A stretch of DNA of 64,000 nt from positions 640,001 to 704,000 of the forward strand of contig CAVVJT010000007.1 of the NCBI GenBank assembly GCA_963748625.1. The letters are read 5' to 3'. The position numbers and the translations under genes were made by a program. Shown in pieces: positions 16,759 to 40,637 of this stretch (the first letter of the stretch is position 1; each line of letters begins with the position of its first letter). The notes under the pieces are model-generated. The model did not search any database. It was not told the DNA's origin and saw only the letters and a program-made list of their open reading frames with translations. The DNA is from an uncultured Chloroflexia bacterium. Its GTDB lineage: Bacteria; Chloroflexota; Limnocylindria; Limnocylindrales; CSP1-4.

Positions 16759-16870
16759 TGATGCGCCTGTGACTCACCCGCGGGGCTAGCGAGCGTGACC
16801 GCGTCGCGAAACCCGACCTTCGCGTCGTGATCGTGCAGGGCCGGGCTGGATCTGATGCGGCGGTGACTCA
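16759..16870 (-). repeat. Repeat family A, solo copy
   Basis: Boxes TGATGCGCCTGTGACTCA (16759) and TGATGCGGCGGTGACTCA (16853), 94 bp apart; core CGCGAAACCCGACCTTCGCG; reverse complement aligns with 21161-21272. Confidence 0.85.
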
Positions 16871-16984
16871 GGCGGGTGGCGGATCAGCCGAGAGGCGGCA
16901 GCAGCGGGGCGCGGGGACACTTCGAGCCGGTCGGCAGTTGGCGCTCGGTCGGTCCGCCGATACGGTCGGGCGCGGAGGTGGCGG

Positions 16985-17656
16985 ATGCTGGCTGTGGTCA
17001 TCGTCGCGGGGCTGGTGGCGGCCGTCGGGTTCGTCGTGATCGCGGCAGGCGGCGTCATCCCCGTGCTCGGTGATCCGATGGCCGCGTGGCGGGAGCCGGC
17101 ATCGTCTCTGGTGCTCCCGGCGCTGCTCCTGCTTGTGAGCACCGGGTTGCTGGTCGTCGGGGGGCTCGGCCGGGTCCGTCGGCGGGGTGCCAGCGGACGG
17201 CGCCAGGCGGTGGTGATCGGGGCCGTCGCGATCTGGCTCGCGGTCGGTGTCGGCGGTCTGGTGGTCCTGGGCCGCGATCTCGTGCTGCCCGGCACCGCGC
17301 GCGTCGAGGGCCTCCCGGGGCAGGCCGAGCCATGGTCGGGCCCGATGGTGTGCCGGCGCTACCGGTGGGGATCGTTCGAGAGCACGGGTCGGTCGGCCGA
17401 AGTCCAAGTGCCGGCATCGGCCACGGGGGGTGAGGTGACGTTCGCCCTGGTGCTGGCCGGCGTGGACGGGGACAACCCGAGCCTCATCGCCGGTGACGCG
17501 AGGTGGGGGTGGTCGACGGGATCCAGCATGTCGATGGCATCGGCGGACATCAGCGACGACGGTCTGCGGGGCACGATCCTCACGCTGCCCACCCCGATCC
17601 TCCACCGGGACGCCGCTCCGTCGATGGTCTCGTTGACCTGGGACTGCCTCGGGTAG
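16985..17656 (+). CDS. Hypothetical membrane protein (3 TM plus C-terminal extracytoplasmic domain)
   Basis: Three hydrophobic segments; C-terminus ends LTWDC, like the LTWEC end of 30231-30959. Confidence 0.5.
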   Translation: MLAVVIVAGLVAAVGFVVIAAGGVIPVLGDPMAAWREPASSLVLPALLLLVSTGLLVVGGLGRVRRRGASGRRQAVVIGAVAIWLAVGVGGLVVLGRDLVLPGTARVEGLPGQAEPWSGPMVCRRYRWGSFESTGRSAEVQVPASATGGEVTFALVLAGVDGDNPSLIAGDARWGWSTGSSMSMASADISDDGLRGTILTLPTPILHRDAAPSMVSLTWDCLG

Positions 17657-17692
17657 CGGTAGGACGACCGGCGCGGTGCGGCAGTGCAGCGC

Positions 17693-17749
17693 GCCCCGCC
17701 TGTGGGGCGAATCCGGACCGCGGCCGCACGGCCTGCGCGCCAAACCCCG
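17693..17749 (+). repeat. Repeat family B, left half (interrupted by IS30)
   Basis: GCCCCGCCTGTGGGGCGAAT...GCCAAACCCCG matches 19876-19932. Confidence 0.85.
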
Positions 17750-18999
17750 GGTGAATTCAGCCGGTCGATGCAACATCACCTCCGGAGGTCGTGTGGCGTA
17801 CTGGAGGTGACGGATGCGGCGACGGAGATCGGCCAGGGGCAAGCTCCGTGACGGGGACATCGCGGAGATCTGGCGGCTGTTCCATGACGGCCTCGGGCCA
17901 AAGGCGATCGCGAGGACCGTCGGCGCCTCGCACCAGGCGGTCGGCCGGGTGATCGCGGCACGCGGCGGCGTGATGCCCGTCGCCCACGCGGTCCTGCCGT
18001 GGAGGCGGTCGGGCCACCGCCTGCGGCTCGCGGACCGGGAGGAGATCAGCCGGGGCCTTGCCGCAGGCGAGTCCTTCCGGCAGATCGCCGGCCGCCTCGG
18101 TCGGGCGGCATCGACGGTCGCCCGGGAGGTCGGCCGCAACGGGGGCCGCGACGGGTACCGGGCCCACGAGGCCCACGAGGCCACCCGGGAGCGCGAGTGC
18201 CGCCCGAAGCCCACGCGCCTCGCCCGCAGCCCGCAGCTGCAGGCCGAGGTCGAGCGGCTGCTCCTCCTGCGCTGGTCGCCCGTCCAGATCGCGAGCCACC
18301 TGCGGCTGGCGCATCCTGCGGACGAGGAGATGCACGTGAGCCACGAGACGATCTACCGCGCGCTCTACATCCAGGGCCGGGGCGAGCTGCGCCGGGAGCT
18401 CGCCGCCTGCCTGCGCACGGGCCGGGCGAGGCGGCGGGCGATGGCCACGCCCGAGGACCGCGGGCGCATGGCGGGCATGGTCCTGATCAGCGAGCGTCCG
18501 GCCGAGATCGAGGACCGGGCGGTCCCCGGACACTGGGAGGGCGACCTGCTCATCGGCCGGGCCCAGGGCTCCGCCGTCGCCACCCTGGTCGAGCGGACGA
18601 CCCGGTACACCATGGTCGCCGCCCTGCCCGGCGGCCGCTCGGCCCCCGAGGTCCGCGACGCCCTGGTCGGGCTGGTCGCCCGGCTCCCCGACCACCTCCG
18701 GCGCTCGCTCACGTGGGACCGCGGGCACGAGATGGCCGAGCACCTGCGGTTCACGGTCGAGACCGGTGTTGCTGTCTACTTCTGCGACCCCTCGAGTCCC
18801 TGGCAGCGCGGCACCAACGAGAACACCAACGGGCTCCTCCGCCAGTACCTGCCCCGCACCATGGACCTGCGCGAGGTCGGCCAGGCGCAGCTCGACGCGA
18901 TCGCCGCCGAGCTCAACGGCAGGCCTCGACAGACGCTCGGCTGGAGGTCACCATCCGAGGTGTTCGCGGAGGCCGTTGCATCGACCGGCTGAATCCGCC
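17750..18999 (+). mobile_element. IS30-family insertion sequence, 1250 bp, about 25-bp terminal IRs, probable 2-bp CG target duplication
   Basis: IRL GGTGAATTCAGCCGGTCGATGCAAC, IRR GTTGCATCGACCGGCTGAATCCGCC; CG at 17748-49 and 19000-01. Confidence 0.92.
17814..18992 (+). CDS. IS30-family DDE transposase
   Basis: HTH LGRAASTVAREV, VSHETIY, GHWEGDL, SLTWDRG.EM, PWQRGTNENTNGLLRQYLP. Confidence 0.95.
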   Translation: MRRRRSARGKLRDGDIAEIWRLFHDGLGPKAIARTVGASHQAVGRVIAARGGVMPVAHAVLPWRRSGHRLRLADREEISRGLAAGESFRQIAGRLGRAASTVAREVGRNGGRDGYRAHEAHEATRERECRPKPTRLARSPQLQAEVERLLLLRWSPVQIASHLRLAHPADEEMHVSHETIYRALYIQGRGELRRELAACLRTGRARRRAMATPEDRGRMAGMVLISERPAEIEDRAVPGHWEGDLLIGRAQGSAVATLVERTTRYTMVAALPGGRSAPEVRDALVGLVARLPDHLRRSLTWDRGHEMAEHLRFTVETGVAVYFCDPSSPWQRGTNENTNGLLRQYLPRTMDLREVGQAQLDAIAAELNGRPRQTLGWRSPSEVFAEAVASTG

Positions 19000-19001
19000 C
19001 G

Positions 19002-19055
19002 ACATTGGCGCCCGGACCACGCTCACGACCCGCCGAAATGCCCCACAGGTGGGGC
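19002..19055 (+). repeat. Repeat family B, right half
   Basis: ...CCACGCTCAC...GCCGAAATGCCCCACAGGTGGGGC matches 19933-19986. Confidence 0.85.
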
Positions 19056-19120
19056 AGCGTGCAGGTAATCGGGGGCCGCGAGGTGGGCCGGAGTGCGGTG
19101 GCGAGACGGCGCGGATGTCG

Positions 19121-19540
19121 TCAGATCGAGCCGGGCGCGGCGACCCAGCGCACCGGCTGGCCCGTCACCGAGGCGATGACGTCGTAGTCGTGGTCGTAGT
19201 GGACGATCATCACCCCATGGCGGGCTGCGACTGCTGCGATGAGGAGATCGGGGATCTTGACCTGGCGGTGGTGCAGCGGCCCTCGGGCAGCCAGCTCACG
19301 GAAGACGCGGCGCGCCTCGTCCCAGTCCGCCGGCTCGGTCCGCAGCCACGGGCAGGCACGCAGGCCCTCCTCCACGGCCTGGAAGTCTGCCCCGTCGCGG
19401 GCGCTCCAGAGCAGCTCCATCGCGACCATGTCGCAGACGGCGATCAGGCCGTCCTCCAGCGCCGGTCCGAACCATGCCAGGCCCGGCTTGCCCTTCCGGG
19501 CCCAGGCCGACGTGTCCGCCAGCTCGAGGCGTTCGTCCAT
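19121..19540 (-). CDS. vapC: VapC PIN-domain toxin
   Basis: ADTSAW, MELL, DLLIAAVA, VHYDHDYD acidic PIN residues. Confidence 0.9.
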   Translation of the reverse strand: MDERLELADTSAWARKGKPGLAWFGPALEDGLIAVCDMVAMELLWSARDGADFQAVEEGLRACPWLRTEPADWDEARRVFRELAARGPLHHRQVKIPDLLIAAVAARHGVMIVHYDHDYDVIASVTGQPVRWVAAPGSI

Positions 19541-19545
19541 GGCCG

Positions 19546-19758
19546 TCAGCGCGGAAGGTCGCGCTGTGCCCGAAGGGTTGGCAGCACATCCTCGAGCTCC
19601 GAGAAGTCACGACGTGCGAGGCCGGCTCGCCGGCGGCGCGCGACGACGTCACGGAGGGCGGCGTGCACCGTTTCGGTGGTCCGCGTGGTGCCGAGCGCCT
19701 CGGCGGCGTCACGCAGCAGGTCGCGATCGAGGTCGAGCGTGGTGTGGGTCCTGGCCAT
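19546..19758 (-). CDS. vapB: VapB ribbon-helix-helix antitoxin
   Basis: MARTHTTLDLDRDLLRDAAEALGTTRTTETVHAALRD, upstream of vapC. Confidence 0.85.
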   Translation of the reverse strand: MARTHTTLDLDRDLLRDAAEALGTTRTTETVHAALRDVVARRRRAGLARRDFSELEDVLPTLRAQRDLPR

Positions 19759-19875
19759 CGGAGGTGCCTCCGCCCGTGCGTTCTCGTGATGCGTGAACTC
19801 TATCACCGCGTCCACGCATCCATCAGGCGATTGATCACGCATTCGGCCCGATGCTCGGTCGGCCACGCAGCGCGC

Positions 19876-19986
19876 GCCCCACCTGTGGGGCGAATTGGGA
19901 TGTCGAACGCAGGGTCTGCGTGCCAAACCCCGGGATGCGCACCCGGCCCACGCTCACAGCGGGCCGAAACGCCCCACAGGTGGGGC
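19876..19986 (+). repeat. Repeat family B, intact copy
   Basis: Boxes GCCCCACCTGTGGGGC (19876) and GCCCCACAGGTGGGGC (19971), 95 bp apart. Confidence 0.85.
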
Positions 19987-20022
19987 AGGTGCGCGATCGG
20001 GGACTAGAGCGCAGGCGCCCGA

Positions 20023-20550
20023 TCAGGCCGGCAGTGACTCCTTCGGCGTCTCGAAGTTGGACGGGACGTCCACCTCGATGCCAGTGCCGGGGATCTCGCG
20101 GACCGGGAACCGGACCAGCGGCTTGGGCGGCGCGCCGGCGAGGACGGTGCCGTCAAGCGCGAACTCGCCCTCGTGGCACGCGCACTCGAACTTGGAGATG
20201 GCGGCCGTCCAGGAGTAGCGGCACAGGCCGTGCGTGCAGCGCGGGTCGTAGGCGACGAGGTCGCCCTCGGCCGTGCGCAGGAGCCAGGTGGAGCCGGGGA
20301 TCCGCTCGCCGTTGGACGCGACGACGCTGAACGGGACTTCCTGCGGGGTGCCGGGGACGAGACTCGCGGGGTCGATGTCGAGGGCGATGGTCTGCGGGGG
20401 TCCCGAACAGGCAGCAAGGACCGCGCCGAGGCCGCCCGAGGCCACGACGGCACCTGCGCCCATGAGGATCAGCATCGATCGTCGCGGGACGGGCGTGGAA
20501 CGCGGATCGAACGCCGGACCCTCCTCGGGCCGGCGGCCTGTGTTGCCCAT
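20023..20550 (-). CDS. Rieske [2Fe-2S] protein, probable Tat lipoprotein
   Basis: PRRSMLIL twin-Arg, VLAAC lipobox, CTHGLC and CACH motifs. Confidence 0.85.
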   Translation of the reverse strand: MGNTGRRPEEGPAFDPRSTPVPRRSMLILMGAGAVVASGGLGAVLAACSGPPQTIALDIDPASLVPGTPQEVPFSVVASNGERIPGSTWLLRTAEGDLVAYDPRCTHGLCRYSWTAAISKFECACHEGEFALDGTVLAGAPPKPLVRFPVREIPGTGIEVDVPSNFETPKESLPA

Positions 20551-20562
20551 GTTCGGGAGAGC

Positions 20563-20952
20563 CTACCCCGAGACCGCGCTCGGCTGCAGGCCGCGATCCT
20601 GGTCGTTGCGCGCAACACCGCTGACAGCCTGGCGGATGGCGGCCAGGAAGTCGTCCGGCTTCGACGCCAGGGACTCCCGCTTGAGGGTCCACGCGCTGGT
20701 GGTGGTGATGTCGACGTCGAGCACGAGGGCCGATCCGGATCGCCGCACGATGTCCGCGGCGTCGATCCTGCCGCCCTCCTCCACCACGATCACGGCGGGC
20801 GCGCTGGCGAGCGCGGCATCGACGGCAGCCGTCTCGCAGACGTCCACGGCCTCGACGATGATGCCGGGTTCGGCGGCCAGCATCCGGCCCAAGCCCTCCC
20901 CCATCAGGGGATGGCTGTACAGGACGAGGACCCTGACGGGCTCCGGTGACAC
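20563..20952 (-). CDS. Stand-alone degenerate receiver-domain protein
   Basis: VRVLVLYSHPLMGEGLGRML...DDFLAAIRQA resembles a NarL receiver but lacks the acidic pocket and phospho-Asp. Confidence 0.55.
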   Translation of the reverse strand: MSPEPVRVLVLYSHPLMGEGLGRMLAAEPGIIVEAVDVCETAAVDAALASAPAVIVVEEGGRIDAADIVRRSGSALVLDVDITTTSAWTLKRESLASKPDDFLAAIRQAVSGVARNDQDRGLQPSAVSG

Positions 20953-21160
20953 GTTCTCCCACCCACTCCACAGCCCGCGACGGGGCCGTGCTCCGATGCT
21001 AGGGGAGGGTCCGATGTCGTCCAATCCGTCGCAGGGCACAGCCGGACCCGCGAATCCCTGTATCCGAAGGGCTACCGGCCCAAGGAATCCGTGCCGAACG
21101 GCGCATCCGGCCGACGGCACCCACCGCGTCGGGACCTCAATCCACCCCCGTTGCCCCGAC

Positions 21161-21272
21161 TGAGTCACGTATGCATCAATTCAGGTCCGGCCCCGCACGA
21201 CCAGGCCGCGAAGGTCGGGTTTCGAGGCCCGGCCACGCACGTACCGGGGCGGATTGAGTCACAGCCGCATCA
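21161..21272 (+). repeat. Repeat family A, copy upstream of the HTH-nuclease gene
   Basis: Boxes TGAGTCACGTATGCATCA (21161) and TGAGTCACAGCCGCATCA (21255), 94 bp apart; core CGCGAAGGTCGGGTTTCG. Confidence 0.85.
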
Positions 21273-21365
21273 AGTTCCCGAAGGTGCTGTCGATGCCACC
21301 AATGTGCGGCATAAGCGCGGCATACGCGCGGTCTAAGTACGACGTGAGCGGACTCCGCTACAACC

Positions 21366-22184
21366 ATGGCCATGGACAGCCGAACCGTGCGACTGGGCGA
21401 GGACGCGACGGTCGGCAGTGTCGCGACGATCATCAAGAACGCCCGCGAACTGACGGGCTGGTCGCAGCGCGAGCTCGCGGGGCGCGCCGGAACATCGCAA
21501 TCAGCGATCTGCCGGCTGGAGTCCGGGAGTGCCTCTGCGGTAGAGATGCTCGTGCTCGGCAAGGTGCTCGACGCGCTCGGACTGGACGCGCAGCTCGTCG
21601 TCGAAGGCCGCCACCTCTTCGACAGGGTGCGCCAGAAGGATGGCGTACACGCGAAGGTCACGGGGTTCGTCGGCCGACGCCTCACGCGGTGGGATTGGCT
21701 GACCGCCGGTGAAGCGCTGATCGGCATCGATCGGCCGCGCGGCTGGATCGACCTTCTGGCCTTCCGGTGGGCCGATCGCGCACTCCTGGTCGAGGAGACC
21801 AAGACAGAGATCCCGGACATGGGCCAACTCCAGCGCAGCCTCGCCTTCTATGAGCGGGAGGCGATGGCGGTGGCACGGGGGTTCGGGTGGGAACCGCGCA
21901 GCGTGAATGTGCTTCTTGTCACCTTGGACAGCGCGGCCATCGCCCGGCGCCTCGCAGACAACCGGGACCTCGTCAGACTCGCCTTCCCCGCGCCGGTCTC
22001 GGATGTTCTCCGCTGGCTCGAGCACCCGACTGCGGCGCGGCCGCGAGAGTGGGCCATCGGCACGTGCGACCCAGCGTCACGGAGGGTGACGTGGCTCCGG
22101 CCAACGACGCTCGGCTCGCGTCGCACGCCTCCGGCCTATGCGAACTACGCGGATGCGGCGGCCCGCCTGCTCCTGCCGGGGTGA
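21366..22184 (+). CDS. XRE-family HTH fused to a PD-(D/E)XK restriction-endonuclease-like domain
   Basis: ARELTGWSQRELAGRAGTSQSAICRLESG; GWIDLLAF...LLVEETKT (D...ExK). Confidence 0.75.
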   Translation: MAMDSRTVRLGEDATVGSVATIIKNARELTGWSQRELAGRAGTSQSAICRLESGSASAVEMLVLGKVLDALGLDAQLVVEGRHLFDRVRQKDGVHAKVTGFVGRRLTRWDWLTAGEALIGIDRPRGWIDLLAFRWADRALLVEETKTEIPDMGQLQRSLAFYEREAMAVARGFGWEPRSVNVLLVTLDSAAIARRLADNRDLVRLAFPAPVSDVLRWLEHPTAARPREWAIGTCDPASRRVTWLRPTTLGSRRTPPAYANYADAAARLLLPG

Positions 22185-22247
22185 ACTAACCGCGTGCGCA
22201 GGGCCCGAGCGGTGGTCGCGGGGCGGGTCCCGCTCGCGTCGGCTGGC

Positions 22248-22359
22248 TGAGTCGCCTGCGACTCACCGCGTGAGATCCACGCAGGGGTGCGCCCCCGAAG
22301 TCGAGGTTCGCGTGTTGGGCTGTGCGGGGACGAGGGCCGAATGAGTCCGGCGCGACTCA
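22248..22359 (-). repeat. Repeat family A, inverted copy downstream of the HTH-nuclease gene
   Basis: Boxes TGAGTCGCCTGCGACTCA (22248) and TGAGTCCGGCGCGACTCA (22342), 94 bp apart; core CGAAGTCGAGGTTCGCG. Confidence 0.8.
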
Positions 22360-22449
22360 GGCGCCGGGGCGAGCGTGCCCAGACCGACTCAGGCGCCACG
22401 GCGCGGCGCGAGGAATCCGCGCCCGAGGCGCAGGCCGCGAGACCCCGCG

Positions 22450-23145
22450 TCAGCCCCGGGGGTTGTCCTGGCTCGTCATCCCCTGGCGCACCGCGTAGGC
22501 CGCGGCCTGCACCCGGTTCGTGAGGTGGAGCTTCTCGAGGGCGTTGTGGACGTGGTTCTTGACCGTGCCCTCGGTGATCGTCAGCTCGTTGGCGATCTCC
22601 TTGTTGGACATCCCCGCAGCGACGAGCTGGAGGATCTCCGACTCACGCCGGGTGAGGACGGTGTCCTCGGGCGCCAGCGTCGAGCCAGATCCGCGCGTGG
22701 GGATCCCGCCGGTGCGCAGGGCCTCCAGCAGCTTGGTCGCGACCGCGGGTGCGATGGGCGACTCACCGCGCATGACACCGCGCAGGTCCTCGAACAGCTG
22801 CTCCGGCCGGACGTTCTTGAGGAGATACCCGTTGGCGCCGGCCTTGATCGCGTTGAACAGGTCGTCGTCGTCCTCGGACACCGTGAGCATCACGATGGGG
22901 GTCGTGAAGCCGGCCGACCGGATCGCGATCACCCCGTCGACGCCGTCGGCATCGGGCATGTTCACGTCCATCACGACGAGGTCCGGCTTGAACTGGCGGA
23001 CCTTCTCCAGGGCGTCACGGCCGTTCTCGCCCTCGCCCACGACCGTCATGTCGAACTGGCCGCCGATCAGGGTCGCCAGTGCCCTCCGGAAGAGCGGCTG
23101 GTCGTCAACGAGCAGCACCCTGATTTTCGGCGGAAGGTGTTCCAA
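22450..23145 (-). CDS. NarL/LuxR-family response regulator
   Basis: VLLVDDQ, VVMDVNMP, GYLLK, LTRRESEILQLVAAGMSNKEIA; probable TTG start. Confidence 0.92.
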   Translation of the reverse strand: MEHLPPKIRVLLVDDQPLFRRALATLIGGQFDMTVVGEGENGRDALEKVRQFKPDLVVMDVNMPDADGVDGVIAIRSAGFTTPIVMLTVSEDDDDLFNAIKAGANGYLLKNVRPEQLFEDLRGVMRGESPIAPAVATKLLEALRTGGIPTRGSGSTLAPEDTVLTRRESEILQLVAAGMSNKEIANELTITEGTVKNHVHNALEKLHLTNRVQAAAYAVRQGMTSQDNPRG

Positions 23146-24913
23146 CAGTGTCCTCGGCGTCGAGTCGGACGACGATCGTCGTCCCGGCATTCGGAGCAGT
23201 ATGCACATCGATCGAGCCGCCGATCTGCTGGACCCGCTCCCGCATGGAGGCGAGCCCGAAGCCCCCCTCCATCGAACCGGCGACGGTCGAAGGATCGAAG
23301 CCTACCCCATCATCCTCGATCGAGAGAGTGGTGCCACTGGGCGCGCACTCGATCCGGACGCTGACCTTGGAGGCCTGGGCGTACTTGCGTGTGTTGGTCA
23401 GGGCCTCCTGTACGACGCGCAGGAGCTGGACCTCGGAGCGGGGGCTGATCGAGCGGCGGGCGTCGCCCTGGCAGGAGACGGTGGCGGCGATACCCGTCTG
23501 GCGGCTGTACTTGCGCAGGTACTCGCGAAGGGATCCCTCGAGGCCCGCGTCCTCGCGGACGGTCTCGCGGAGGCCAAGGATCGCCTCGCGGACGTCCTGG
23601 TAGGCCTCGTCGGCGGTGTCGGCCAGGTCGCTGAGCTCATCGGCGAGGTCGCTGCTGGCCTCGTCCTTGGCGCGCAGCTCGAGCGCGCGCAGCTGGAGGT
23701 GGATGACGCCGAGGACCTGCGCGAGGCTGTCGTGCAGCTCGCGGGCGATGCGATCGCGCTCGGCGTGGATGGTCCACTGCTCCTCGGACTCGTGGAGGTG
23801 GGCGGTGCGGACCGCGATCGCGGCCATGTCCGCGAGGGCACCGAGGAGGCTGCGCTCGCTCTCGGTGAACGGGCGGCCGTGGCGGACGACGCACAGCTCA
23901 CCGAGCACGCCGTCGGGGCCGCGGAGCGGACGGGCTGCCCACTGGGTGTCACCGTCGCGCAACACGGTCGGGCAGTGCGCGTTGTGCGTGCGGCCCGCTG
24001 CTGCATGCTCATCGGCCACGTGGCAGACGGGGCCGTCGTCGGCCATCGCGAGCAGGTCACGGATCGCAGGCGTGCGGGCGGCGACGTCTCGCCGGTCGGA
24101 CAGGCAGGCCACGGCGCGCTCGGCGCCCAGCAGGTCGCGGGCGTGCTGGGTGATGGTGTCGAGGACCTCGCGCAGCTCGGCGCGGCCGGTCAGCTGGAGG
24201 GCGACGGCGTACAGGGCTCCGCGCTCGAGCTCGCGGCGGTGCAGGTCGGCGACCGTCAGGCCCAGCTGGGCAGCGCCAGCGATCTCGCCCGCGATGTCGG
24301 CGAGGGCCGCGTCCGAGATGTCGGGCTCGACGGGCGGGTGGAACGCGAGGCGCAAGTGGCCGATGCGCGCGCCGCCACGGACGAGCGGCAGGTCCAGAAT
24401 GCCGGTGTCGATGCCGGCCCGGCGGGTGTAGCGCGGATCGAGGAAGGCGGCGTCGGGGGGCTCGGTGAGGAGCGGGGAGAGCCAGGCGAGACCGGGCGAC
24501 AGGGCGGCCGGCCGACGGATCTCGATGGGCGGTCCATCCGGCTGCGCGATGGTGACGATCCCCGCGAGGGCGCCGGTCTGGGTCATCACGCGATCGAGGC
24601 TCTGCTCCAGCAGGTCCGGCAGGGAGAGGCCGCCGCGGACCGCCGAGCTCACGGCATGGGTGGCCGTGAGGTCCTTGTTCTGGCTCACCAGGTGGCGCTG
24701 GGCGCGGTCGAGGTAGACCGAGACGATCATCGCGAAGGCAACGATCGCGCCGCCCATGACCATCGCGGCGGCGACGTGCGACTCATCGGACGTCAGCTGC
24801 GGGTCGAGGACGAGGAAGCGGACGAGCTCGAAGCCCCAGACGAAGACGATGGGCAGGACGATCGTCACCCACTTGAGGCGGTTGAGGTCGCGGAGGCCTC
24901 GGGGGTCGCTCAT
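23105..24913 (-). CDS. GAF-domain HisKA_3 sensor histidine kinase
   Basis: 2 TM, GAF domains, ERDRIARELHDSLAQ, QEALTN, IEDDGVGF, GFGLASMRER. Confidence 0.92.
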   Translation of the reverse strand: MSDPRGLRDLNRLKWVTIVLPIVFVWGFELVRFLVLDPQLTSDESHVAAAMVMGGAIVAFAMIVSVYLDRAQRHLVSQNKDLTATHAVSSAVRGGLSLPDLLEQSLDRVMTQTGALAGIVTIAQPDGPPIEIRRPAALSPGLAWLSPLLTEPPDAAFLDPRYTRRAGIDTGILDLPLVRGGARIGHLRLAFHPPVEPDISDAALADIAGEIAGAAQLGLTVADLHRRELERGALYAVALQLTGRAELREVLDTITQHARDLLGAERAVACLSDRRDVAARTPAIRDLLAMADDGPVCHVADEHAAAGRTHNAHCPTVLRDGDTQWAARPLRGPDGVLGELCVVRHGRPFTESERSLLGALADMAAIAVRTAHLHESEEQWTIHAERDRIARELHDSLAQVLGVIHLQLRALELRAKDEASSDLADELSDLADTADEAYQDVREAILGLRETVREDAGLEGSLREYLRKYSRQTGIAATVSCQGDARRSISPRSEVQLLRVVQEALTNTRKYAQASKVSVRIECAPSGTTLSIEDDGVGFDPSTVAGSMEGGFGLASMRERVQQIGGSIDVHTAPNAGTTIVVRLDAEDTVGTPSAENQGAAR

Positions 24914-24929
24914 GTGTGGGGGTCGCTCA

Positions 24930-25015
24930 TGCGGGGATGACGCGGGCTGCGCGGGGGACGCGAGCTGCGCTGGGGACGCCGGGGACGCGGATTGCCCGCG
25001 GGACGCTGGGGACGT
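24930..25015 (+). repeat. Degenerate 9/18-bp tandem repeat (GGGGACGC-like)
   Basis: Several ggggacgc-like units upstream of the kinase. Confidence 0.45.
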
Positions 25016-25132
25016 TCATTGCCTCGACTGTGCCGTTCGATACAGCTGTCGGGTCAGTGCCGACTGGCCCGTACGATACAGGGCCGTGCGGACCGGAGGG
25101 CCGGGACGCGTGCGGCCGGGGGGCGTCGCGCC

Positions 25133-25286
25133 AGCCTGCGCACCGATCGCGCCCACTGTGCAGCGCCGTCGCTGGATGCGCGATCGATGCGCAGCTCAGG
25201 CGCCGGCTCGGGTCGAACTCGCCACGGGCTGCGCGCTCATCAGACACCCAGCGACGTGAGTGCCTGGTGTGCGCGACTGATGCGCA
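25133..25286 (+). repeat. Repeat family C, copy 1
   Basis: First 54 bp identical to 26151-26204; remainder colinear; TGCGC-N7-GCGCA-like boxes at 25137, 25177, 25230, 25270. Confidence 0.85.
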
Positions 25287-25375
25287 CGGCTCGCGGCCCG
25301 GGGTTGTGGGTCGCAGCTCGGGGGTTGTGCACAGGCGAATTGGTCCGGGATAAGCGGGACGTGCCACAGTCCGCC

Positions 25376-26145: not shown

Positions 26146-26150
26146 CGCGG

Positions 26151-31725: not shown

Positions 31726-31753
31726 CCGGGGCACGGAGGCGCACCTGGAACGG

Positions 31754-31783: not shown

Positions 31784-31804
31784 AGTTTCGTGCGTGGGCG
31801 AACG

Positions 31805-33727: not shown

Positions 33728-33800
33728 TGGTGTACCTCTGGTATGGGGTCCGATCGGGGGAGTGTAAACCGGCATGCAAGAGGGCGATAGGCTGCTTGGC

Positions 33801-34835
33801 ATGCGCGAGGCCGTCCCCGGGAACCCTGTTGACGGGCCGGATGGCGATGTCCGCCTCCCGGTCGAGGGCAGGCTCGACCTGCGCCAGGTCCTGGGCATCC
33901 ACCAGCGGGGGTACGGCGATCCGGCCCTGCGGTTCGAGGTGTCGGGCTCCTGCTGGCGGGCGTCGCGCACGCCCGACGGACCGGTGACGCTGTTCGTGGA
34001 GACGTTCGCGGGGGCGGGCGAGGGGCTCGACGGGACGGGCGAGGGGCTCGACGGCGGGCACGCTCGGGTGCGCGCGTGGGGCCCCGGGACCGCGTGGGCG
34101 CTCGCGCAGGCGCCGGCGCTCCTGGGCCTTGATGACGTGCACCGGACCGTGACGCCGGCCCATCCCGCGGTGGCCGCGGCCCAGCGCAAAGTGCGCGAGG
34201 TGCGCATCGGGCGGACCGGTCGTGTCCTCGAGGCGCTCATCCCGGCGATCCTCGAGCAGAAGGTGACCGGCGACGAGGCACGGCGGGCGTACCGCGGACT
34301 GATCGCGCGGTGGGGCGAGGACGCGCCGGGGCCGTCCGGGCTCCGGCTGCTGCCCGCACCCGATGTCATCGCGGGACTCCCCTACCACGCGCTGCACCGG
34401 GTGGACGTCGAGCGGCGGCGGGCCGAGCTGCTGGCCCGGGTCTGTCGGGACGCCGCGCGGCTGGAGGCCCTGGGTGCGGCCGCCGCGACGCACGGCGCAA
34501 CGTCCCACGCGACGCACGGCGCAACGTCCGACGCGCGGGCGGCGGTGTACGCCGCCCTTCGCGCCTATCCGGGCATCGGCCCCTGGACGGCCGCCGAAGT
34601 GGGCATCCGGGCCCTCGGCGATCCCGACGCCGTGAGCGTCGGCGACTTCCACATCCCGAACATGGTCGCGTGGGCGCTCGCACGCGAGCCGCGCGGCACC
34701 GACGAGCGGATGCTCGAGCTGCTGGAGCCGTACCGGGGCCAGCGGGGGCGAGTGGTGCGGCTGCTGGAGCTGGCCGGGATCAAGGCGCCGCGGTACGGCC
34801 CGCGCCTCTCAGCGCGCCGCATCGGTGAGCTCTGA
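33801..34835 (+). CDS. AlkA-like DNA-3-methyladenine glycosylase (HhH-GPD)
   Basis: AILEQKVTG, PGIGPWTAAEV...GDPDAVSVGDFH, LEPYRGQRG. Confidence 0.85.
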   Translation: MREAVPGNPVDGPDGDVRLPVEGRLDLRQVLGIHQRGYGDPALRFEVSGSCWRASRTPDGPVTLFVETFAGAGEGLDGTGEGLDGGHARVRAWGPGTAWALAQAPALLGLDDVHRTVTPAHPAVAAAQRKVREVRIGRTGRVLEALIPAILEQKVTGDEARRAYRGLIARWGEDAPGPSGLRLLPAPDVIAGLPYHALHRVDVERRRAELLARVCRDAARLEALGAAAATHGATSHATHGATSDARAAVYAALRAYPGIGPWTAAEVGIRALGDPDAVSVGDFHIPNMVAWALAREPRGTDERMLELLEPYRGQRGRVVRLLELAGIKAPRYGPRLSARRIGEL

Positions 34836-34871
34836 CCAGCTGAGCGTGAGCCAACGCTGGCCGCGCGCGAC

Positions 34872-36095
34872 TCACGCAGCCGGAACCGGCTCCTCCCGCA
34901 TCCCCCAGGGCGACCCGTACTCCACGAGCAGGTCGAGGAATGGCTTCGGCGCGAACGCCTCAGGCCCCAGCACGCCCGCGCCGGACCACACGCCCCGCGA
35001 GAGCAGCTCCATCCCCACGATCGGGTTGATCGCGGTCTGCCAGACGACGGCCTGCGACCCGTACTCGCGCCACGACCAGTCGCTGTCCACCACGTGGTAG
35101 AGGTACACGGCACGCGGCGAACCATCCTTGCCCAGACCGGTCACGAACGTGCCCGCGCAGGTCTTCCCATGCATGCGGTCGCCCAGGCCGGCCGGGTCGG
35201 GCAGGCATGCGGCCACAACGTCCCGCGGCGAGACCTCGACGCCCTTCACCTTCACCGGCGTGGTGCGATCCAGCCCGAGCGTGTGCAGCACCTTGAGGAC
35301 GTTGATGAACTCGTCGCCCAGGCCGTACTTGAAGGTCACGCGCTTGGCCTTGACCCAGCGCGGGATCAGCAGGACCTCCTCATGCTCCACGTTCACGCAC
35401 TCGACCGGGCCGATGCCCTCCGGGAACTCGAACGTCTCGGGCTCCGAGAACGGCGGTGTCGTGTACCAGCCGCGACCCTCCTCGAAGATCACCGGCGGGT
35501 TCAGGCACTCCTCGATCGTCGTCCAGATGGAGAACGACGGGGCGAAGTCGTACCCGTCCACGACCAGGTTGGCACCATCCCGGACACCGGCCTCGTCGAT
35601 CTCCGAGAACAGCTCGTCGGCCGCATACCGCGCGAAGATGTCGGACAGGCCGGGCTCGATGCCCAGGCCCACCAGCGCCAGGCGCCCGGCCGCCTCCCAC
35701 TCCCCCGCCTTGGCGAACTGCTCGTCGCCGAGCTTGAGCCCGGACAGCTCGTAGGGCTTCTCCGGATGCGGCTTGGACAGGCTCATCGCCATGTCCATGT
35801 AGTTCACGCCGGCCTCGGCGCAGGCATCGAAGATCGGCATGACGAAGCGCGGGTCCACCGCGTTGAGCACGTGCGTGACCGCGTGCTCGCGGATGAGCGC
35901 AGCGACGGACGCCACGTTCGACGCATCGACCTGCGCGCCGCTGAAGCGGGCGTCACCCGCGACCTGGGCAAGCGCGTGCTCGACGCGGCGCGGATCGTAG
36001 TCGGCCACGACCATGTGCTCGAAAAAGGCGCGGCGGGCGGCGATGGCCACGGCCGCAGTGCCGACGCCACCAGCGCCGACGACCAGGATTCGCAT
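34872..36095 (-). CDS. Saccharopine dehydrogenase / carboxyspermidine dehydrogenase family protein
   Basis: MRILVVGAGGVG, YMDMA, GIEPGLSD, HEEV. Confidence 0.85.
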   Translation of the reverse strand: MRILVVGAGGVGTAAVAIAARRAFFEHMVVADYDPRRVEHALAQVAGDARFSGAQVDASNVASVAALIREHAVTHVLNAVDPRFVMPIFDACAEAGVNYMDMAMSLSKPHPEKPYELSGLKLGDEQFAKAGEWEAAGRLALVGLGIEPGLSDIFARYAADELFSEIDEAGVRDGANLVVDGYDFAPSFSIWTTIEECLNPPVIFEEGRGWYTTPPFSEPETFEFPEGIGPVECVNVEHEEVLLIPRWVKAKRVTFKYGLGDEFINVLKVLHTLGLDRTTPVKVKGVEVSPRDVVAACLPDPAGLGDRMHGKTCAGTFVTGLGKDGSPRAVYLYHVVDSDWSWREYGSQAVVWQTAINPIVGMELLSRGVWSGAGVLGPEAFAPKPFLDLLVEYGSPWGMREEPVPAA

Positions 36096-36193
36096 GGTGA
36101 GGATCACCTCGTGGCGGGGGCGGCGGCACCGGATCGACCGCCGCCCGGACTGGTGGGGGACGGGACGGTCCCCCTGGGGTTGCACCGATTGTG

Positions 36194-37768
36194 TCAGCCG
36201 GCAGACTCGGGCTTCGGCTGGTAGACCTCACGCTTCCGCCGGAAGAACTCCGGCGCCTTCAGCCTCCAGGCCACGAGCAGGATCACACCAAGGATCCCGA
36301 GCAGGATCGAGAGCGCCAGCGGGACACCGATGCCGAACAGGCTGGCGCAGGTGGCGACATCCTCGGGATCGGTGCACGTGTAGGAGCTCAGCGGGCTCAT
36401 GAGATCGACGACCGACTGCCAGAACGCCCAGGTGAGGACCAGCGCGCCGAACAGGGGCAGGAGCCCCATCCCGATGAAGTCCTTGGCGCTGCGGAACAGG
36501 ACCTTCCGGTAGTAGACCACTGACGCGTAGCCGGTGATGCCGTAGTAGAAGGCGATCATCAGGCCCAGCGCGGTGAGCGCGTCCCAGTACACGTTCTCCG
36601 AGATGAGCTTGAGCCCGATGTACCAGAGGACGGCCAGGATGCCCGTCCAGATGGTGGCATTCGCGGGCGTCAGGTAGCGCGGGTGGATCTGGGCCCAGTA
36701 CTTCGGGGCCGCACCCTTCGCCCCCATGGACAGGGCGGTACGCGCGCACGGCAGGATCGTGGTCTGCGTGGACGCCGCGGCGGAGGTCAGGACAGCAATG
36801 ATCAACAGCACGTTGAGCGGCTCGCCCAGGATCTCAGCGCCGAGGCTCGCAAGGATGTCGCTCTCGCCCTGCTCGGCCAGGTACTCGGCCCCGTGGATCG
36901 CCTGCGCGGCGATCGTCACGAGGACGTATGTCCCGACCAGGATGAGAACGGAGAAGATCGTCGCCCGGCCCGGCTGCTCGGTGGGGTTGCCGCTCTCCTC
37001 GTTGACCGAGGCGGTTGTGTCCCAGCCCCAGTAGATGAACAGGGTGATGAGCATGGCGGCGGCGAAGGCACTGGCGTCCCAGGCACCGTTCTCGCCGACG
37101 ATCGACAGGGGGTTGAGCCACTCGAGCGTCGGCATCACCGACCCCTCGAGGCCGCCGAAGACCTTGACCAGCGCGACGACCGAGAAGATGCCGAGCGTGA
37201 TCAGCTCGACGCTGAGCAGGACCGCCTGCGATCGCGCCGAGAGCTCGATGCCGCGCCAGCAGATCCACGTCATGGCGGCGACGAACAGGATGCCCAGGGC
37301 GACGACACCGACGTCAAAGGTGACCTCGCCGACCATGATCGGGAGGACCGGGTTCGCGAAGACGTCGATCCCGAACAGGCTGAACGTGTACTGCGCCGCA
37401 ACCTCGGCGAGGCTGGCGATGACGATGACCTGGGCGACGATCATCACCCAGCCGGTGAACCAGCCCAGGTGTGGGCCGGCGGCAGTGGTGACCCAGGTGA
37501 AGCTGGTGCCGCAGTCGGGGTCGGCGCGGTTCATGTAGTAGTAGGCCATCGCGATGCAGAACATCGGGATGAATGCCACCCACATGATCGAAGGCGCAGC
37601 AAGCCCGACGGCGGCCGCCACGAGGCCCAGCGAGACCGCGAGGCTGTAGGCCGGAGCCGTGGATGCCACCCCGATGACGACGTTCTCCGCCATCCCGAGG
37701 GCACCGGTCTTCAGGCCCTTGCTGCCTGGGGATCCCTCGCCTGTCAGCTCTTCGCTAACGACCGCCAT
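36194..37768 (-). CDS. APC-family amino acid/polyamine permease
   Basis: About 12 TM; STAPAYS, PDCGTSFTW, YWGWD, EES. Confidence 0.9.
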   Translation of the reverse strand: MAVVSEELTGEGSPGSKGLKTGALGMAENVVIGVASTAPAYSLAVSLGLVAAAVGLAAPSIMWVAFIPMFCIAMAYYYMNRADPDCGTSFTWVTTAAGPHLGWFTGWVMIVAQVIVIASLAEVAAQYTFSLFGIDVFANPVLPIMVGEVTFDVGVVALGILFVAAMTWICWRGIELSARSQAVLLSVELITLGIFSVVALVKVFGGLEGSVMPTLEWLNPLSIVGENGAWDASAFAAAMLITLFIYWGWDTTASVNEESGNPTEQPGRATIFSVLILVGTYVLVTIAAQAIHGAEYLAEQGESDILASLGAEILGEPLNVLLIIAVLTSAAASTQTTILPCARTALSMGAKGAAPKYWAQIHPRYLTPANATIWTGILAVLWYIGLKLISENVYWDALTALGLMIAFYYGITGYASVVYYRKVLFRSAKDFIGMGLLPLFGALVLTWAFWQSVVDLMSPLSSYTCTDPEDVATCASLFGIGVPLALSILLGILGVILLVAWRLKAPEFFRRKREVYQPKPESAG

Positions 37769-38100
37769 TCGGCTCTCCTTCTAGCCTCGACAGGAATGGC
37801 GGGACGCTCCGCGTGATGGCACACCCGCGGGCACGACCGCAACAAGGCCAGACGGCATGCCGTCCTCGGTCCGGATGGCGGGTAGGACCGGGTGCGGACC
37901 CCTGCGCGTACCGGGTCGTGCGTGGATGTGCGGCCTGCGGCGCGAAATGACGTTGCCCCGAGCCCGCGGTGGCGGGCGGACGGGACGGGCGCACCCGCGA
38001 TGTTGCGCCCTGCGGGTCAGGCCCCGGTGGACTCCCCCGGCGCGGGGGCCGTTGGGGCGTTGATCGCCGCCGTCGGCTGACCGGATTGCGGAGCGGGCCG

Positions 38101-38490
38101 TCAGCGCCCGGTCGAACGGGCCTCGGTGGACTCCCCGAACGACATGGCGATGAGCACGACCAGGATCACGAGCACGACGGCCCCGAGGAGGAGCGGGGCG
38201 AGGGACTCAGCGGGCGTCGGGCTGGTGCGAACCCAAGCGGCGCCGGTCTCGGTCGAGCCCGGCTCTCCCGGCTTGGGCGTCGCGGCCGGCGCCGGGGTGG
38301 CGTCGGTCGTTGCAGCCACGATCGGGGCGGCGTCGCTGCTACCGGCGGTGGCGGAAGCCGTGGTCGCGAGGACGATGGACGGCAGGGCGGCCGCGAGCAT
38401 CAGGCCGAGCATGACGACGAGTACACCGGTCCTCCGGCGCGCGCGGGTCAGCAGTTGTCGAGTCACGAGATGCGGCACGCGGTCAGCCAT
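38101..38490 (-). CDS. Small hypothetical protein with signal peptide and C-terminal TM
   Basis: Two hydrophobic segments flanking an Ala/Thr/Pro-rich region. Confidence 0.45.
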   Translation of the reverse strand: MADRVPHLVTRQLLTRARRRTGVLVVMLGLMLAAALPSIVLATTASATAGSSDAAPIVAATTDATPAPAATPKPGEPGSTETGAAWVRTSPTPAESLAPLLLGAVVLVILVVLIAMSFGESTEARSTGR

Positions 38491-38655
38491 GAGACATCCT
38501 CCACCCTGCCGCCCGGACTCGGCGGCCGTCGGGAAGTGTAGCCGCCGCCGGTCGCGCAGGCTACGGCGTGATGGCCGGCACTCCGGACCATGCGACGGCC
38601 GCCGGGTCGTCCCGACGGCCGTCCTGCCTCGCTGGATCCGCCGTCCGGCGGTGCG

Positions 38656-39267
38656 TCAGCCCCCGAAGAAGTCCGTCACGAGCCGCGTGTGACCGTTGGC
38701 CTTCCACACGCCGATGCCGACCTTCTTGTACCGGCTGTTCTTGATGTTCTTCCAGTGGCCGCCACCGGTTGCCTTCTCCCTCTGGAAGGCGAGGTGCGTG
38801 TACAAGACCGACTTGTAGGCGCTCGAGGCGTCCCAGCAGCCGATGTTCTCGCCCCACGTGTAGCCGCTGAAGCCGGCGTTCGCGAGCCGACCGGTGACGT
38901 TGCCGTGGTAGCAGGCACCCGCGGTGGCCAGCTTCTTCGCCCAGCGACGCGCGACCCCCGACAGGTCCGCGTTGCGCTTGAGCGGCGCCACGTACTTGGA
39001 GTAGGTGCCCGTGCCGTAGGCCTTGCAGGTGCCGTCCTTGAGCACCCATCCGCCGGTCCGGGTGCAGTTGAGCAGCTTGAGGTAGTAGGTCTCGACGCCG
39101 TACCAGGACGGATCGGCCGCGGCGACGCCCGTCGGGGCGGCTGCGCTGGTGCCGAAGGCTGCGAGCGACGCGAGCAGGCTCACGGCGAGCATCGTGGCGA
39201 AGCGCGAGGTCAAGCGCGAGCGGATGGACGCCCGCTGGGCGCCGGGGTGAAGCAGTCGCACGACCAT
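38656..39267 (-). CDS. Secreted CAP/SCP-domain protein
   Basis: LLNCTR, WGENIG, GHWKNI, VGIGV...TDF; GAGAGGAA before ATG 39267. Confidence 0.8.
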   Translation of the reverse strand: MVVRLLHPGAQRASIRSRLTSRFATMLAVSLLASLAAFGTSAAAPTGVAAADPSWYGVETYYLKLLNCTRTGGWVLKDGTCKAYGTGTYSKYVAPLKRNADLSGVARRWAKKLATAGACYHGNVTGRLANAGFSGYTWGENIGCWDASSAYKSVLYTHLAFQREKATGGGHWKNIKNSRYKKVGIGVWKANGHTRLVTDFFGG

Positions 39268-39471
39268 TTCCTCTCTACCCGACGGCACCGGGAAGGCCGA
39301 TGCCGACGATCTGCTTGGGTGCCGGGGCTCGTGCGGCCACCGGACCATTGGACCGGCCGAAGGCTACCGGGTCATCGTCGATCGCGCCCTGACCCGGTGG
39401 TACTGGCCGGGTTCCGGGGCCAGACCGCGCCGCCACTGCCCGCGCCCGCGGCCGAACCGGCGATTCCGACG

Positions 39472-39500
39472 CTCATGTGAGGCATTGCCGCTCAGGCGAG
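39472..39500 (+). promoter_or_regulatory. Paired palindromic operators upstream of the SorC-type regulator
   Basis: CTCATGTGAG (39472) and CTCAGGCGAG (39491), 19 bp apart. Confidence 0.55.
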
Positions 39501-39514
39501 GTAGCATGTTCCCC

Positions 39515-40480
39515 ATGACTGACCTCGGCAGCAGCGGCAAGGATCGGCTCAGCCTGGTCACCGCCGTGCTCGCCGCGCGCCGCTACTTCCTCGATGGCGC
39601 CACCAAGAGCGAGATCGCCACCGAGCTCGGCATCTCCCGGTTCAAGGTCGCGCGCCTGCTCGACGATGCCGTTCGCGACGGGATCGTCAAGATCGAGATC
39701 GAGGCCGTCCCGGAGATCGACGAGGTGCTCTCCAGGGAGCTGGCCGTCGCCACGGGGATCCGCAGCGCGGTCGTGGTCCGGGACATGGGCGGCCCACCGG
39801 AGCTGGAGCGCTCGCAGTTGGGCCGGGCCGCCGCCACCGTCCTCGCGGACGCCCTCGACGACGGCGACATCCTGGGCATCTCGTGGGGGCGCTCGCTGCA
39901 CGCGATGATCGGCCACCTCCCCGCCCTGCCCGGCTGCGATGTCGTGCAGCTCGTGGGCATCGTCCCCACGCTGGACCTCGCGGTGAACTCGCTGGAGCTC
40001 GTGCGCCGCCTCGCCAACCGGGCCGGGGGCCACGTGCACCCGCTCCACGTCCCGATCGTGGTGGAGCGCCCGGAGCTGGCATCCGCGCTGCGCGAGGATC
40101 CGCACGTCGGGCGGACGATGGCGATGTACCCCCGCCTGACGCGCGCGGTGGTGGGCATCGGGGCCTGGCGCACGGGCTCGTCGTCCCTGCGCGAAGCACT
40201 GTCAGGAGCCGATGCGCGCACGATCGATGCGGCGGGCGCCGTCGCCGACTGCTGCTCGATCCTGCTCGACGCCGACGGGCGCGAGGTCCATGCGGCCGGC
40301 CTGCCGGAGCGCTGCCTCGCGATCTCCGCGGACGAGCTGCGGCGCGTCCCCGACGTCCTCGCGATCTCGGCCGGCACCGAGAAGGTGGAGGGGATCCGGG
40401 CGACGCTGCGCTCAGGCCTGGTGCACCGGCTGGTGACCACCGAGGCGACGGCGCGCGCCCTGCTGGCCGGCGCGGGCTGA
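39515..40480 (+). CDS. SorC/DeoR-family sugar-binding transcriptional regulator
   Basis: ARRYFLDGATKSEIATELGISRFKVARLL, GISWGRSL, VVGIG, LVT. Confidence 0.9.
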   Translation: MTDLGSSGKDRLSLVTAVLAARRYFLDGATKSEIATELGISRFKVARLLDDAVRDGIVKIEIEAVPEIDEVLSRELAVATGIRSAVVVRDMGGPPELERSQLGRAAATVLADALDDGDILGISWGRSLHAMIGHLPALPGCDVVQLVGIVPTLDLAVNSLELVRRLANRAGGHVHPLHVPIVVERPELASALREDPHVGRTMAMYPRLTRAVVGIGAWRTGSSSLREALSGADARTIDAAGAVADCCSILLDADGREVHAAGLPERCLAISADELRRVPDVLAISAGTEKVEGIRATLRSGLVHRLVTTEATARALLAGAG

Positions 40481-40524
40481 CCTCGGGCGCCGGGGGCTGA
40501 TCCCCGGGCGCCTGGGCGGGCGCT

Positions 40525-40637
40525 TGAGTCATCACCGCATCAGTTCGGCCTGCTGCGTGCGATGGTCGCGGGCGGAAGGTCGACTTCAGGTGCTGACCCA
40601 CGCACGGTGGTAGCGGATCTGATGCACAGCCGAATTG
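40525..40637 (+). repeat. Repeat family A, diverged solo copy
   Basis: TGAGTCATCACCGCATCA (40525), core GAAGGTCGACTTC, CCACGCACG, degenerate box TGATGCACAGCCGAATTG (40620), 95 bp apart. Confidence 0.65.

Follow-up and report, generated by a model that had tools for sequence, protein, structure and literature searches.

The stretch described here (the window) comprises 64,000 nucleotides from an uncultured Chloroflexia bacterium. It lies on contig C7 of the genome under study, G000, a 4.63-Mb assembly that is 98.3% complete. At its centre is a gene (21366..22184, + strand) for a 272-aa protein with an XRE-type helix-turn-helix (HTH) domain (residues ~20-80) followed by a predicted restriction-like nuclease domain of the PD-(D/E)XK fold (residues ~94-245; D129, E144, K146). 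The gene is enclosed by two copies of a short intergenic repeat, as an initial annotation of the window had noticed: element c2 (21161..21272, + strand; boxes TGAGTCACGTATGCATCA and TGAGTCACAGCCGCATCA; E 8e-27) ends 93 bp upstream, and element c3 (22248..22359, + strand; boxes TGAGTCGCCTGCGACTCA and TGAGTCCGGCGCGACTCA; E 5.5e-18) begins 63 bp downstream. We interpret gene and repeats, with a probability of roughly 0.6, as a cognate protein-and-repeat system built on an HTH-guided restriction-like nuclease. Its logic would resemble that of REPINs, doublets of repetitive extragenic palindromic (REP) sequences, and their REP-associated tyrosine transposases (RAYTs).

The repeats of the window form a family, here called A, whose boxes follow the pattern TGAKKC-N6-GMMTCA. 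This pattern occurs seven times in the window against an expectation of 0.03, and none of 100 shuffled sequences reaches seven. Six of the seven boxes form three pairs with starts exactly 94 bp apart (16759/16853, 21161/21255 and 22248/22342), while the seventh, at 40525, has a partner, TGATGCACAGCCGAATTG, 95 bp off with a degenerate last half-site. The four intergenic copies of the initial annotation are therefore real, and all lie in intergenic DNA; its spacing of 94, 94, 94 and 95 bp holds, but of the two boxes described for each copy only one fits the pattern in the fourth. Besides the two copies at the gene there are two solo elements. The first, c1 (16759..16870, - strand; reverse-strand boxes TGAGTCACCGCCGCATCA and TGAGTCACAGGCGCATCA with a spacing of 94 bp; E 9e-25), starts 11 bp past the stop of a MarR-like gene, and the other, c4 (40525..40637, + strand; second box degenerate; E 8e-22), has a SorC-type regulator gene on one side and an E1 dehydrogenase gene on the other.

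The whole assembly holds 11 such boxes, namely the seven of the window, a pair on contig C10 (416619/416714, 95 bp apart) and two single ones. A profile search returns five full-length members (E 2e-27 to 6e-18), the fifth being c5 (C10, 416619-416731). The 18-base core CGCGAAGGTCGGGTTTCG, said to be identical in two copies, is so in 16759-16870 (reverse strand) and 21161-21272, and c5 carries a third instance. The copies enclosing the gene had been described as inverted, which proved wrong: by their asymmetric centres c2 and c3 point the same way (profile scores of 77.7 on the + strand vs 47.5 on the - strand, and 59.9 vs 39.4), making them direct repeats, and c1 is the inverted one.

Family A forms one small branch within a superfamily of ~99 loci that share its centre and fixed geometry and carry other end boxes. 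The genome-wide abundance to be checked for these repeats is thus small for family A alone, with five copies, but considerable for the superfamily to which it belongs. A broad full-length profile detects 99 distinct loci in G000 at a cut-off of at least 20 bits and 74 at the stricter cut-off of at least 30 bits; a profile of the shared centre alone detects 48. The B type came to light when G000 and its relative G075 were compared at the c5 locus, where the same centre is accompanied in G000 by boxes CCCACGTGGG. Eight pairs of B-type boxes occur in G000, every one exactly 97 bp apart.

Across the superfamily the elements are 112-116 bp long and carry boxes of 16-18 bp at a fixed distance of 94-97 bp, about nine helical turns, so that both boxes lie on the same face of the helix. 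Between them is a shared, roughly dyad-symmetric centre, set between conserved GC dinucleotides. The box of most sub-families reads (T)GA-NN-C N6 G-NN-TC(A), with the NN pairs alone varying from one sub-family to another. An alignment of 64 sequences across sub-families is nearly gap-free, with G6, A7, C10, G17, T20 and C21 at least 90% conserved. This anatomy is directly observed.

Further members of the superfamily lie in the window. One B-type element is cut at its exact centre by an IS30-family insertion sequence (17752..18994, + strand; transposase ORF (open reading frame) 17814-18992, NF033563 E 5e-85; terminal inverted repeats of ~22 bp, unrelated to the boxes), which leaves a left half (17693..17751; box gCCCCGCCTGTGGGGC) and a right half (18995..19056; box GCCCCACAGGTGGGGC), neither assigned to a strand. 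An uninterrupted B-type solo element follows at 19876..19986 (- strand; the shared centre lies between boxes GCCCCACCTGTGGGGC and GCCCCACAGGTGGGGC; E 2e-21), and an element with yet another box type lies at 54205..54325 (+ strand; E 2.4e-8). The region C7:620-695 kb is crowded, with 14 superfamily loci. In this hot spot six B-type elements stand within 18 kb just upstream of the window (C7:620900-638200), by a frameshifted paralogue of the gene (C7:636315-636899), and six more elements follow in 5.6 kb of the window (16.7-22.4 kb).

Family A is also found in related genomes. Among 70 genomes of the genus, searched for box pairs with a gap of 72-80 bp, nine contain one to seven copies each, and the control, the pattern read backwards, gives zero everywhere; box starts are 94 or 95 bp apart in all 34 collected copies. 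A sample of 401 genomes of the class gave the pattern in 6 of the 137 additional members of the same family, and none of the 263 genomes from other families has it. BLAST of one family-A copy against 60 relatives retrieved nothing outside G000, which made the pattern search necessary. A close homologue of the gene lies within 4 kb at only 2 of 30 loci holding family-A copies; most copies are therefore solo. The source names of the homologues place the gene family in 'Candidatus Limnocylindrales' (Chloroflexota). Elements are duplicated locally at two loci, with a 93-bp tandem repeat of box plus linker at L068 (G014 C27:641276-641481) and two near-identical element copies 218 bp apart at L047 (G036 C70:6895-7225). 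Transporter genes of the MFS and ABC types recur as neighbours in several genomes; these are common families, and their presence was put down to chance or synteny.

By crude ORF calls, family-A copies are extragenic, with 12-13 in convergent, 16-17 in tandem and 5 in divergent gene contexts. Most sit at the 3' end of a gene, copies face either way with respect to the genes, and several supply the TGA stop codon of the upstream gene. REPs behave alike, and such habits would suit REP- or MITE-like repeats (miniature inverted-repeat transposable elements) that are spread or kept by other means, whether another transposase, host recombination or selection for terminators, with the gene merely sitting among them, for instance by having inserted beside them. 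The clustering in a hot region, the IS30-family element that targets one repeat and the presence of repeats in genomes that lack a close homologue of the gene fit the same account. It is nonetheless improbable in our view. The terminal repeats of the IS30-family element are unrelated to the boxes, and no Y1/HUH transposase (RAYT; PF01797) was detected in G000, while six control genomes were positive. The sole nearby DDE gene being that of the IS30-family element, this agrees with the earlier proposal of an enzyme other than HUH or DDE.

The encoded protein offers a candidate for such an enzyme. Its N-terminus matches the Pfam families HTH_3 (34.4 bits, cut-off 23) and HTH_31 (33.1 bits, cut-off 27). 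The C-terminal part is named by no sequence library searched: Pfam gives HTH families only, PADLOC HTH-only matches, NCBIfam HTH-only matches below its cut-offs, the PDB sequence search HTH only, and the ESM Atlas, for the C-terminal part, unnamed Chloroflexota clusters only. This domain is modelled with a predicted local distance difference test score (pLDDT) of 91, from 18 homologues. In the model, residues 94-245 resemble Upx (9wuf; Z 8.6, root-mean-square deviation (rmsd) 3.3, 117 residues aligned), AF1548 (1y88; Z 8.2, rmsd 3.7, 111 aligned), NucS (2vld; Z 8.0, rmsd 3.1, 104 aligned) and Can2 (8bao; Z 7.9, rmsd 2.7, 112 aligned), and Foldseek adds a resemblance to the restriction-like endonuclease of the R2 element. 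All 18 aligned homologues retain D129, E144 and K146. We regard the predicted PD-(D/E)XK fold as a sound assignment, because the moderate Z-scores are taken together with this catalytic motif. The HTH_3 score, the fold matches and the invariant triad agree with the initial description of the gene as XRE-HTH plus PD-(D/E)XK with an intact motif.

The best fold matches of the HTH domain are repressors that act on paired operators (HipB, C.AhdI, C.Esp1396I and SinR); against controller proteins it scores Z 10.4 for C.AhdI, 10.1 for C.BclI and 9.3 for C.Esp1396I. Two boxes about nine turns apart are likewise a classical looping geometry. Both features would be expected of an autoregulated transcription factor with a regulon, in which the boxes, 94-97 bp apart, form looping operators, the PD-(D/E)XK-like domain serves oligomerisation or ligand sensing, and the elements are cis-regulatory sites of the host and not selfish. 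A distant HTH plus PD-(D/E)XK paralogue at C7:467000-467608 (32% identical, with its own D..E-V-K motif) stands alone, without flanking elements, which also fits this alternative; its relatives are found in most genomes of the genus, and the type may represent a stand-alone ancestor or a domesticated form. Other observations make a regulon unlikely. Of 35 family-A copies, no more than 5 have divergent genes on their two sides, and the 12-13 convergent contexts offer no promoter. A regulon of about 99 sites beside housekeeping genes that have nothing to do with one another would be strange, one element bears an insertion sequence with no obvious consequence, and the catalytic D, E and K are invariant.

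The association between gene and elements is directly observed across genomes. At 14 of 20 homologue loci in other genomes the gene has elements of the same architecture on both sides; one further locus has such an element on one side only, and at 5 none was detected. Three of these five still have boxes in their flanks (13 in L030, 5 in L040 and 3 in L038). A strict detector of 'perfect palindrome' box pairs was dropped, having found 5 of the 20 loci against a background of 73 in 3000 random windows; it was too strict because many boxes consist of two unlike half-sites. A second, overlapping set of 54 loci from species-representative genomes (112,608 bases; 48 loci with full flanks) contains 31 profile matches of at least 20 bits, where ~2.4 would be expected at the genome-wide density of G000. 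Matches are thus ~13-fold enriched in the immediate flanks of the gene, and none falls inside a gene in the 54 loci. Of roughly 330 homologues found, many come from contigs of ~1.1 kb, close to the combined length of the gene and two elements, since repeats break assemblies in that way.

Each close paralogue also has boxes of its own. Of the four in G000, three are flanked on both sides, these being the window gene (C7; A-type boxes), C10:1357630 (GACTCC..GGAGTC) and C10:449623 (CCCCA..TGGGG); the fourth, the frameshifted paralogue at C7:636315, has a B-type element on one side. Across loci, the box sequence corresponds to the helix residue preceding a conserved Arg, a correspondence that is directly observed. 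Where this residue is Trp, half-sites read GAC-N-C in all seven loci with boxes; Ser goes with GATCC in four of five loci, and Cys with GAGTC, GATGC or GAACC. Boxes of the CCCCA type occur in two supported protein clades (97/97 and 97/94), with one member each, and in both the helix changes from S-Q-x to S-K/N-G; judged from the sequences, these are apparently two independent joint changes of site and reader. The co-occurrence of box type and protein clade that had been anticipated is therefore seen in the two-sided flanking of 14 of 20 loci, in the own box of each paralogue and in the box dinucleotide that tracks the helix. A match between helix and box suits any cognate DNA-binding protein, a regulator included. 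Mere proximity of the gene to repeats mobilised by something else leaves the same-type flanking pairs, the paralogue-specific boxes and the helix match unexplained, and the enrichment around the gene also speaks against it.

The flanks of the gene show two further features. Immediately beyond the elements that flank the gene, many loci have tandem repeats of 17-30 bp, each of which contains a box or half of one; L030, L040, L044, L026 and L042 are among these loci, with, for example, four copies of GACTCCACCACGGGTC in L030 and three copies of GACCCCACGGTGAGTC in L040. Their counterparts in the window are two extra half-box repeats GACTCAGGCGCC (22354..22397, + strand), 32 bp apart, at or just beyond the outer edge of c3. 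Between the start codon and the element upstream of it runs a conserved leader (window 21290-21365; upstream flanks of L024-L042) with the motifs cgcGTAAGc..GTAAGt..gCTACAAc, which might act as promoter or as another operator.

Differences in presence and absence between species are observed directly. Element c5 is absent in G075, where the alignment breaks exactly at the left edge of the element, and the c4 site measures 38 bp in G014 against 347 bp in G000, including 40525-40637. The whole element-gene-element unit is absent in G036, G061 and G073, which have 100, 219 and 315 bp in place of ~1.4-1.5 kb in G000. G014 has at this site a homologue with different boxes, 68% identical at the nucleotide level vs 81% for the neighbouring genes, and G077 and G082 also have a homologue there, as judged by the shared upstream leader. 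The spacer between the AsnC and M1-peptidase genes contains a B-type element in G000 (C10:418885; L001 8877-8997) and an A-type element in G075 (L066 4001-4112), ~50% identical to each other. Sites polymorphic between relatives, as the initial annotation had supposed, thus include two solo copies and the whole gene unit. Regulatory sites of the host would hardly be expected to come and go between species in this manner, or to belong to different box families in one spacer of two close relatives. Among public sequencing runs, none of RNA is listed as containing this DNA, and the best DNA runs contain at most 0.19 of the words sampled from it. In four freshwater-sediment read runs, contigs bridge c2 (21142-21339) and the border from gene to c3 (22064-22337) with no differences, and at the thin coverage of these runs no read-contig joint skips an element or the unit.

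The symmetry of the elements raises the further possibility of a structured non-coding RNA or a bidirectional terminator with the boxes as stems. In register, 68.6% of cells pair, as compared with 27-39% when the register is slid; columns 47 and 77 pair in every one of the 34 copies, mainly as two types of pair, and the centre of the B type allows G-U pairs on one strand only. The paired fraction, however, equals that of column shuffles (67.1%), so that the symmetry belongs to the columns and not to covariation within copies. The covariation score (0.197 vs 0.168) is reached by 2 of 500 shuffles, a value that relatedness alone can produce. Rfam 15 gives no match at gathering score in the window and none of relevance at E up to 10 in 16500-22600, and RNAalifold finds no consensus pair for the element. 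Folding of the five copies on both strands is no better than that of shuffles (z -1.7 to +1.0), so that the central hairpin of the initial annotation gains no support. As a stem, the frequent box TGAGTC..GCATCA would have two built-in mismatches, and the copies lie in either orientation relative to genes. An RNA function is accordingly a very remote prospect. The boxes of an element are mostly direct repeats, and the elements show no signal of an HUH-like hairpin substrate.

Three other candidates were set aside. The first is that of replication terminus or macrodomain sites; cumulative GC skew on C7 and C10 is noisy and has no turning point at the elements. The operators of heat-shock regulators, DosR, CRP and MtrA do not fit TGAGTC-N6-GACTCA in spacing or half-site orientation, and the N6 varies. 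A homing endonuclease gene would split its own recognition site into two halves, like those on either side of the IS30-family element; here two complete elements flank the gene.

We therefore return to the cognate protein-and-repeat system as the best account, and propose how it might operate. Each sub-family is tied to one XRE-HTH plus PD-(D/E)XK paralogue seated between two elements of its own box type. HTH dimers would bind the boxes, and the recognition helix would determine which NN pair is preferred, as suggested by the gene-element linkage and the covariation of box and helix. The fused nuclease would act on the element held between two bound boxes; that it cuts DNA is suggested by the invariant catalytic triad. 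The break or nick might then be repaired by copying, through which elements would spread or be replaced. This last step is a guess, prompted by the replacement of families at fixed sites and by the absence of target duplications. An autonomous unit would consist of the gene and its two elements, and solo elements would depend on it. The verdict on the REPIN/RAYT-like system first proposed for the window is thus largely favourable: linkage, matching boxes and polymorphism support it, whereas the inverted layout proved wrong and the hairpin is not borne out by folding.

Several observations weigh against this reading. G064, G072 and G073 share syntenic copies in which the boxes are conserved and the interiors have diverged; such copies are long-lived, and conservation of this kind would be equally expected if they were selected for a function in the host or in regulation. 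Copies within a sub-family diverge widely outside boxes and centre and give no sign of recent copying. The sole near-identical pair, C10:847040/874664, has common flanks too and is for that reason a segmental duplication. Inspection of 35 flank pairs by eye revealed no target-site duplication and no clean terminal inverted repeat. Elements also occur without a close gene: G076 (one contig, 93% complete) has two elements and only a 33%-identical paralogue, and the elements of G064 and G072 are accompanied by distant gene matches only. Close homologues exist in 6 of 9 genomes bearing family A vs 30 of 61 element-free genomes of the genus, a comparison that is uninformative.

The linkage and the fold have weak points as well. 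Of the 48 loci with full flanks, 25 have no profile match, 12 have matches on one side and 11 on both. At least some of the 25 are misses, because inspection by eye shows the G075 locus, scored 'none', to have an element of another, diverged centre type on each side. The most abundant sub-family here, B, is paired with a frameshifted paralogue. The protein tree is weak, with 14 of 21 inner branches unresolved, and the link between helix and box accordingly rests on few independent events. The fold scores of the nuclease domain are modest, a Z of ~8 being only the tool's own level for a meaningful match.

A broader and more tentative proposal, which we hold to be possible though short of probable, is that these elements constitute a new class of prokaryotic selfish DNA with an HTH-nuclease as sole dedicated enzyme and with no recombinase of the HUH, DDE, serine or tyrosine type. 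The protein would clamp the boxes and break the DNA either between them or next to them, and host repair would copy the element in a homing-like manner, spreading dependants of 113 bp. A two-base GA-NN-C code, recognised by the helix, would create families blind to one another, which could coexist, compete for intergenic sites and replace one another.

The genes around the unit encode a Rieske protein, a 201-aa protein that matches no family, and a LuxR-type response regulator with a GAF-GAF histidine kinase (window 22450-24913). The last two, of DosR/DosS-like architecture, adjoin the unit, and this pair is ~81% identical in relatives whether the unit is present or absent. Between the insertion sequence and the B-type solo element is a PIN-domain ORF (19121-19540; E 5e-11), probably a toxin-antitoxin remnant in a variable stretch. 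Upstream, window ~9000-16700 has a lower G+C content (0.67-0.70 vs ~0.71-0.73) and ends at the first family-A copy; its short ORFs include DUF6247, MarR-like winged-helix and TPR proteins, and the stretch could be an integrated element.

The system may have uses and consequences beyond its own biology. Many natural pairs of protein and site, which differ by two bases and a few helix residues, provide a compact setting for the evolution of HTH specificity, and the protein could yield programmable site-specific nucleases or nickases with an 18-bp recognition site. The repeats account for part of the assembly fragmentation in Limnocylindrales, a widespread, uncultured group of soil and freshwater.

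Among known systems, the controller (C) proteins of restriction-modification systems are close in fold to the XRE-type HTH domain. The C-box consensus is palindromic, with GACT/AGTC-like half-sites that resemble the boxes here. C proteins, however, are small stand-alone HTH proteins whose genes adjoin those for methyltransferase and endonuclease, whereas here the HTH is fused within a 272-aa protein and no methyltransferase is found among the neighbours scanned. In contrast to C-boxes, the sites here are paired 94-97 bp apart and dispersed genome-wide.

MITEs and their parent insertion sequences share with these elements a non-coding length of ~100 bp, symmetric ends, solo copies beside a coding relative and differences in presence and absence. 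They differ in that no DDE, serine or tyrosine enzyme is involved here, the 35 flank pairs are free of target-site duplications, and the gene lies between two complete elements, not within one. ISPpu9, whose copies sit in REP sequences of Pseudomonas putida according to the accessible part of PMC8450116, recalls the IS30-family element inserted at the centre of a B-type element in the window. That likeness concerns a passenger insertion sequence and not the repeat-gene system itself.

Restriction-like folds are used for DNA breakage in or near mobile DNA elsewhere. The accessible part of a PD-(D/E)XK survey (PMC3424549) lists TnsA of Tn7 as a transposase and the YhgA-like/Rpn (PF04754), PDDEXK_2 and DUF4420 families as putative transposases. 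None of these PD-(D/E)XK Pfam families matches the window protein, which is matched by HTH families only; TnsA, moreover, partners with the DDE protein TnsB, and in that part of the survey cognate flanking repeats are described for none of them. The literature search, to which supplementary files did not belong, returned this survey and the REPIN/RAYT papers, and the accessible parts of these describe no arrangement like the present one.

The closest parallel is provided by REPINs and RAYTs, for which we draw on the accessible parts of PMC3116915, PMC3337134 and 10.1101/2021.07.10.451892 and partly on general background. As far as these sources go, REP/REPIN-RAYT systems of Pseudomonas and Enterobacteria likewise comprise short repeats outside genes, with copy numbers from tens to hundreds, and a chromosomal gene flanked by its linked repeat type; a genome contains several such families of gene and repeat, which differ in sequence, and inheritance is mostly vertical with slow turnover. 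The enzymes are unlike: a RAYT is an HUH Y1 transposase, and the protein here combines an XRE-HTH with a predicted PD-(D/E)XK domain. A REPIN is a hairpin-forming inverted doublet of REPs, whereas the present element has two boxes 94-97 bp apart, a conserved centre and weak pairing covariation; its gene-flanking copies are direct repeats instead of inverted ones, and no GTAG or CGTC tag is seen. Persistent, vertically inherited partnerships of repeat and enzyme in bacteria have so far been known from REPINs with their HUH-type RAYTs. If our reading is correct, the Limnocylindrales elements would be a second, unrelated case, in which a restriction-like nuclease carries its own DNA-reading domain, and such partnerships would be a general outcome and no peculiarity of one enzyme family.

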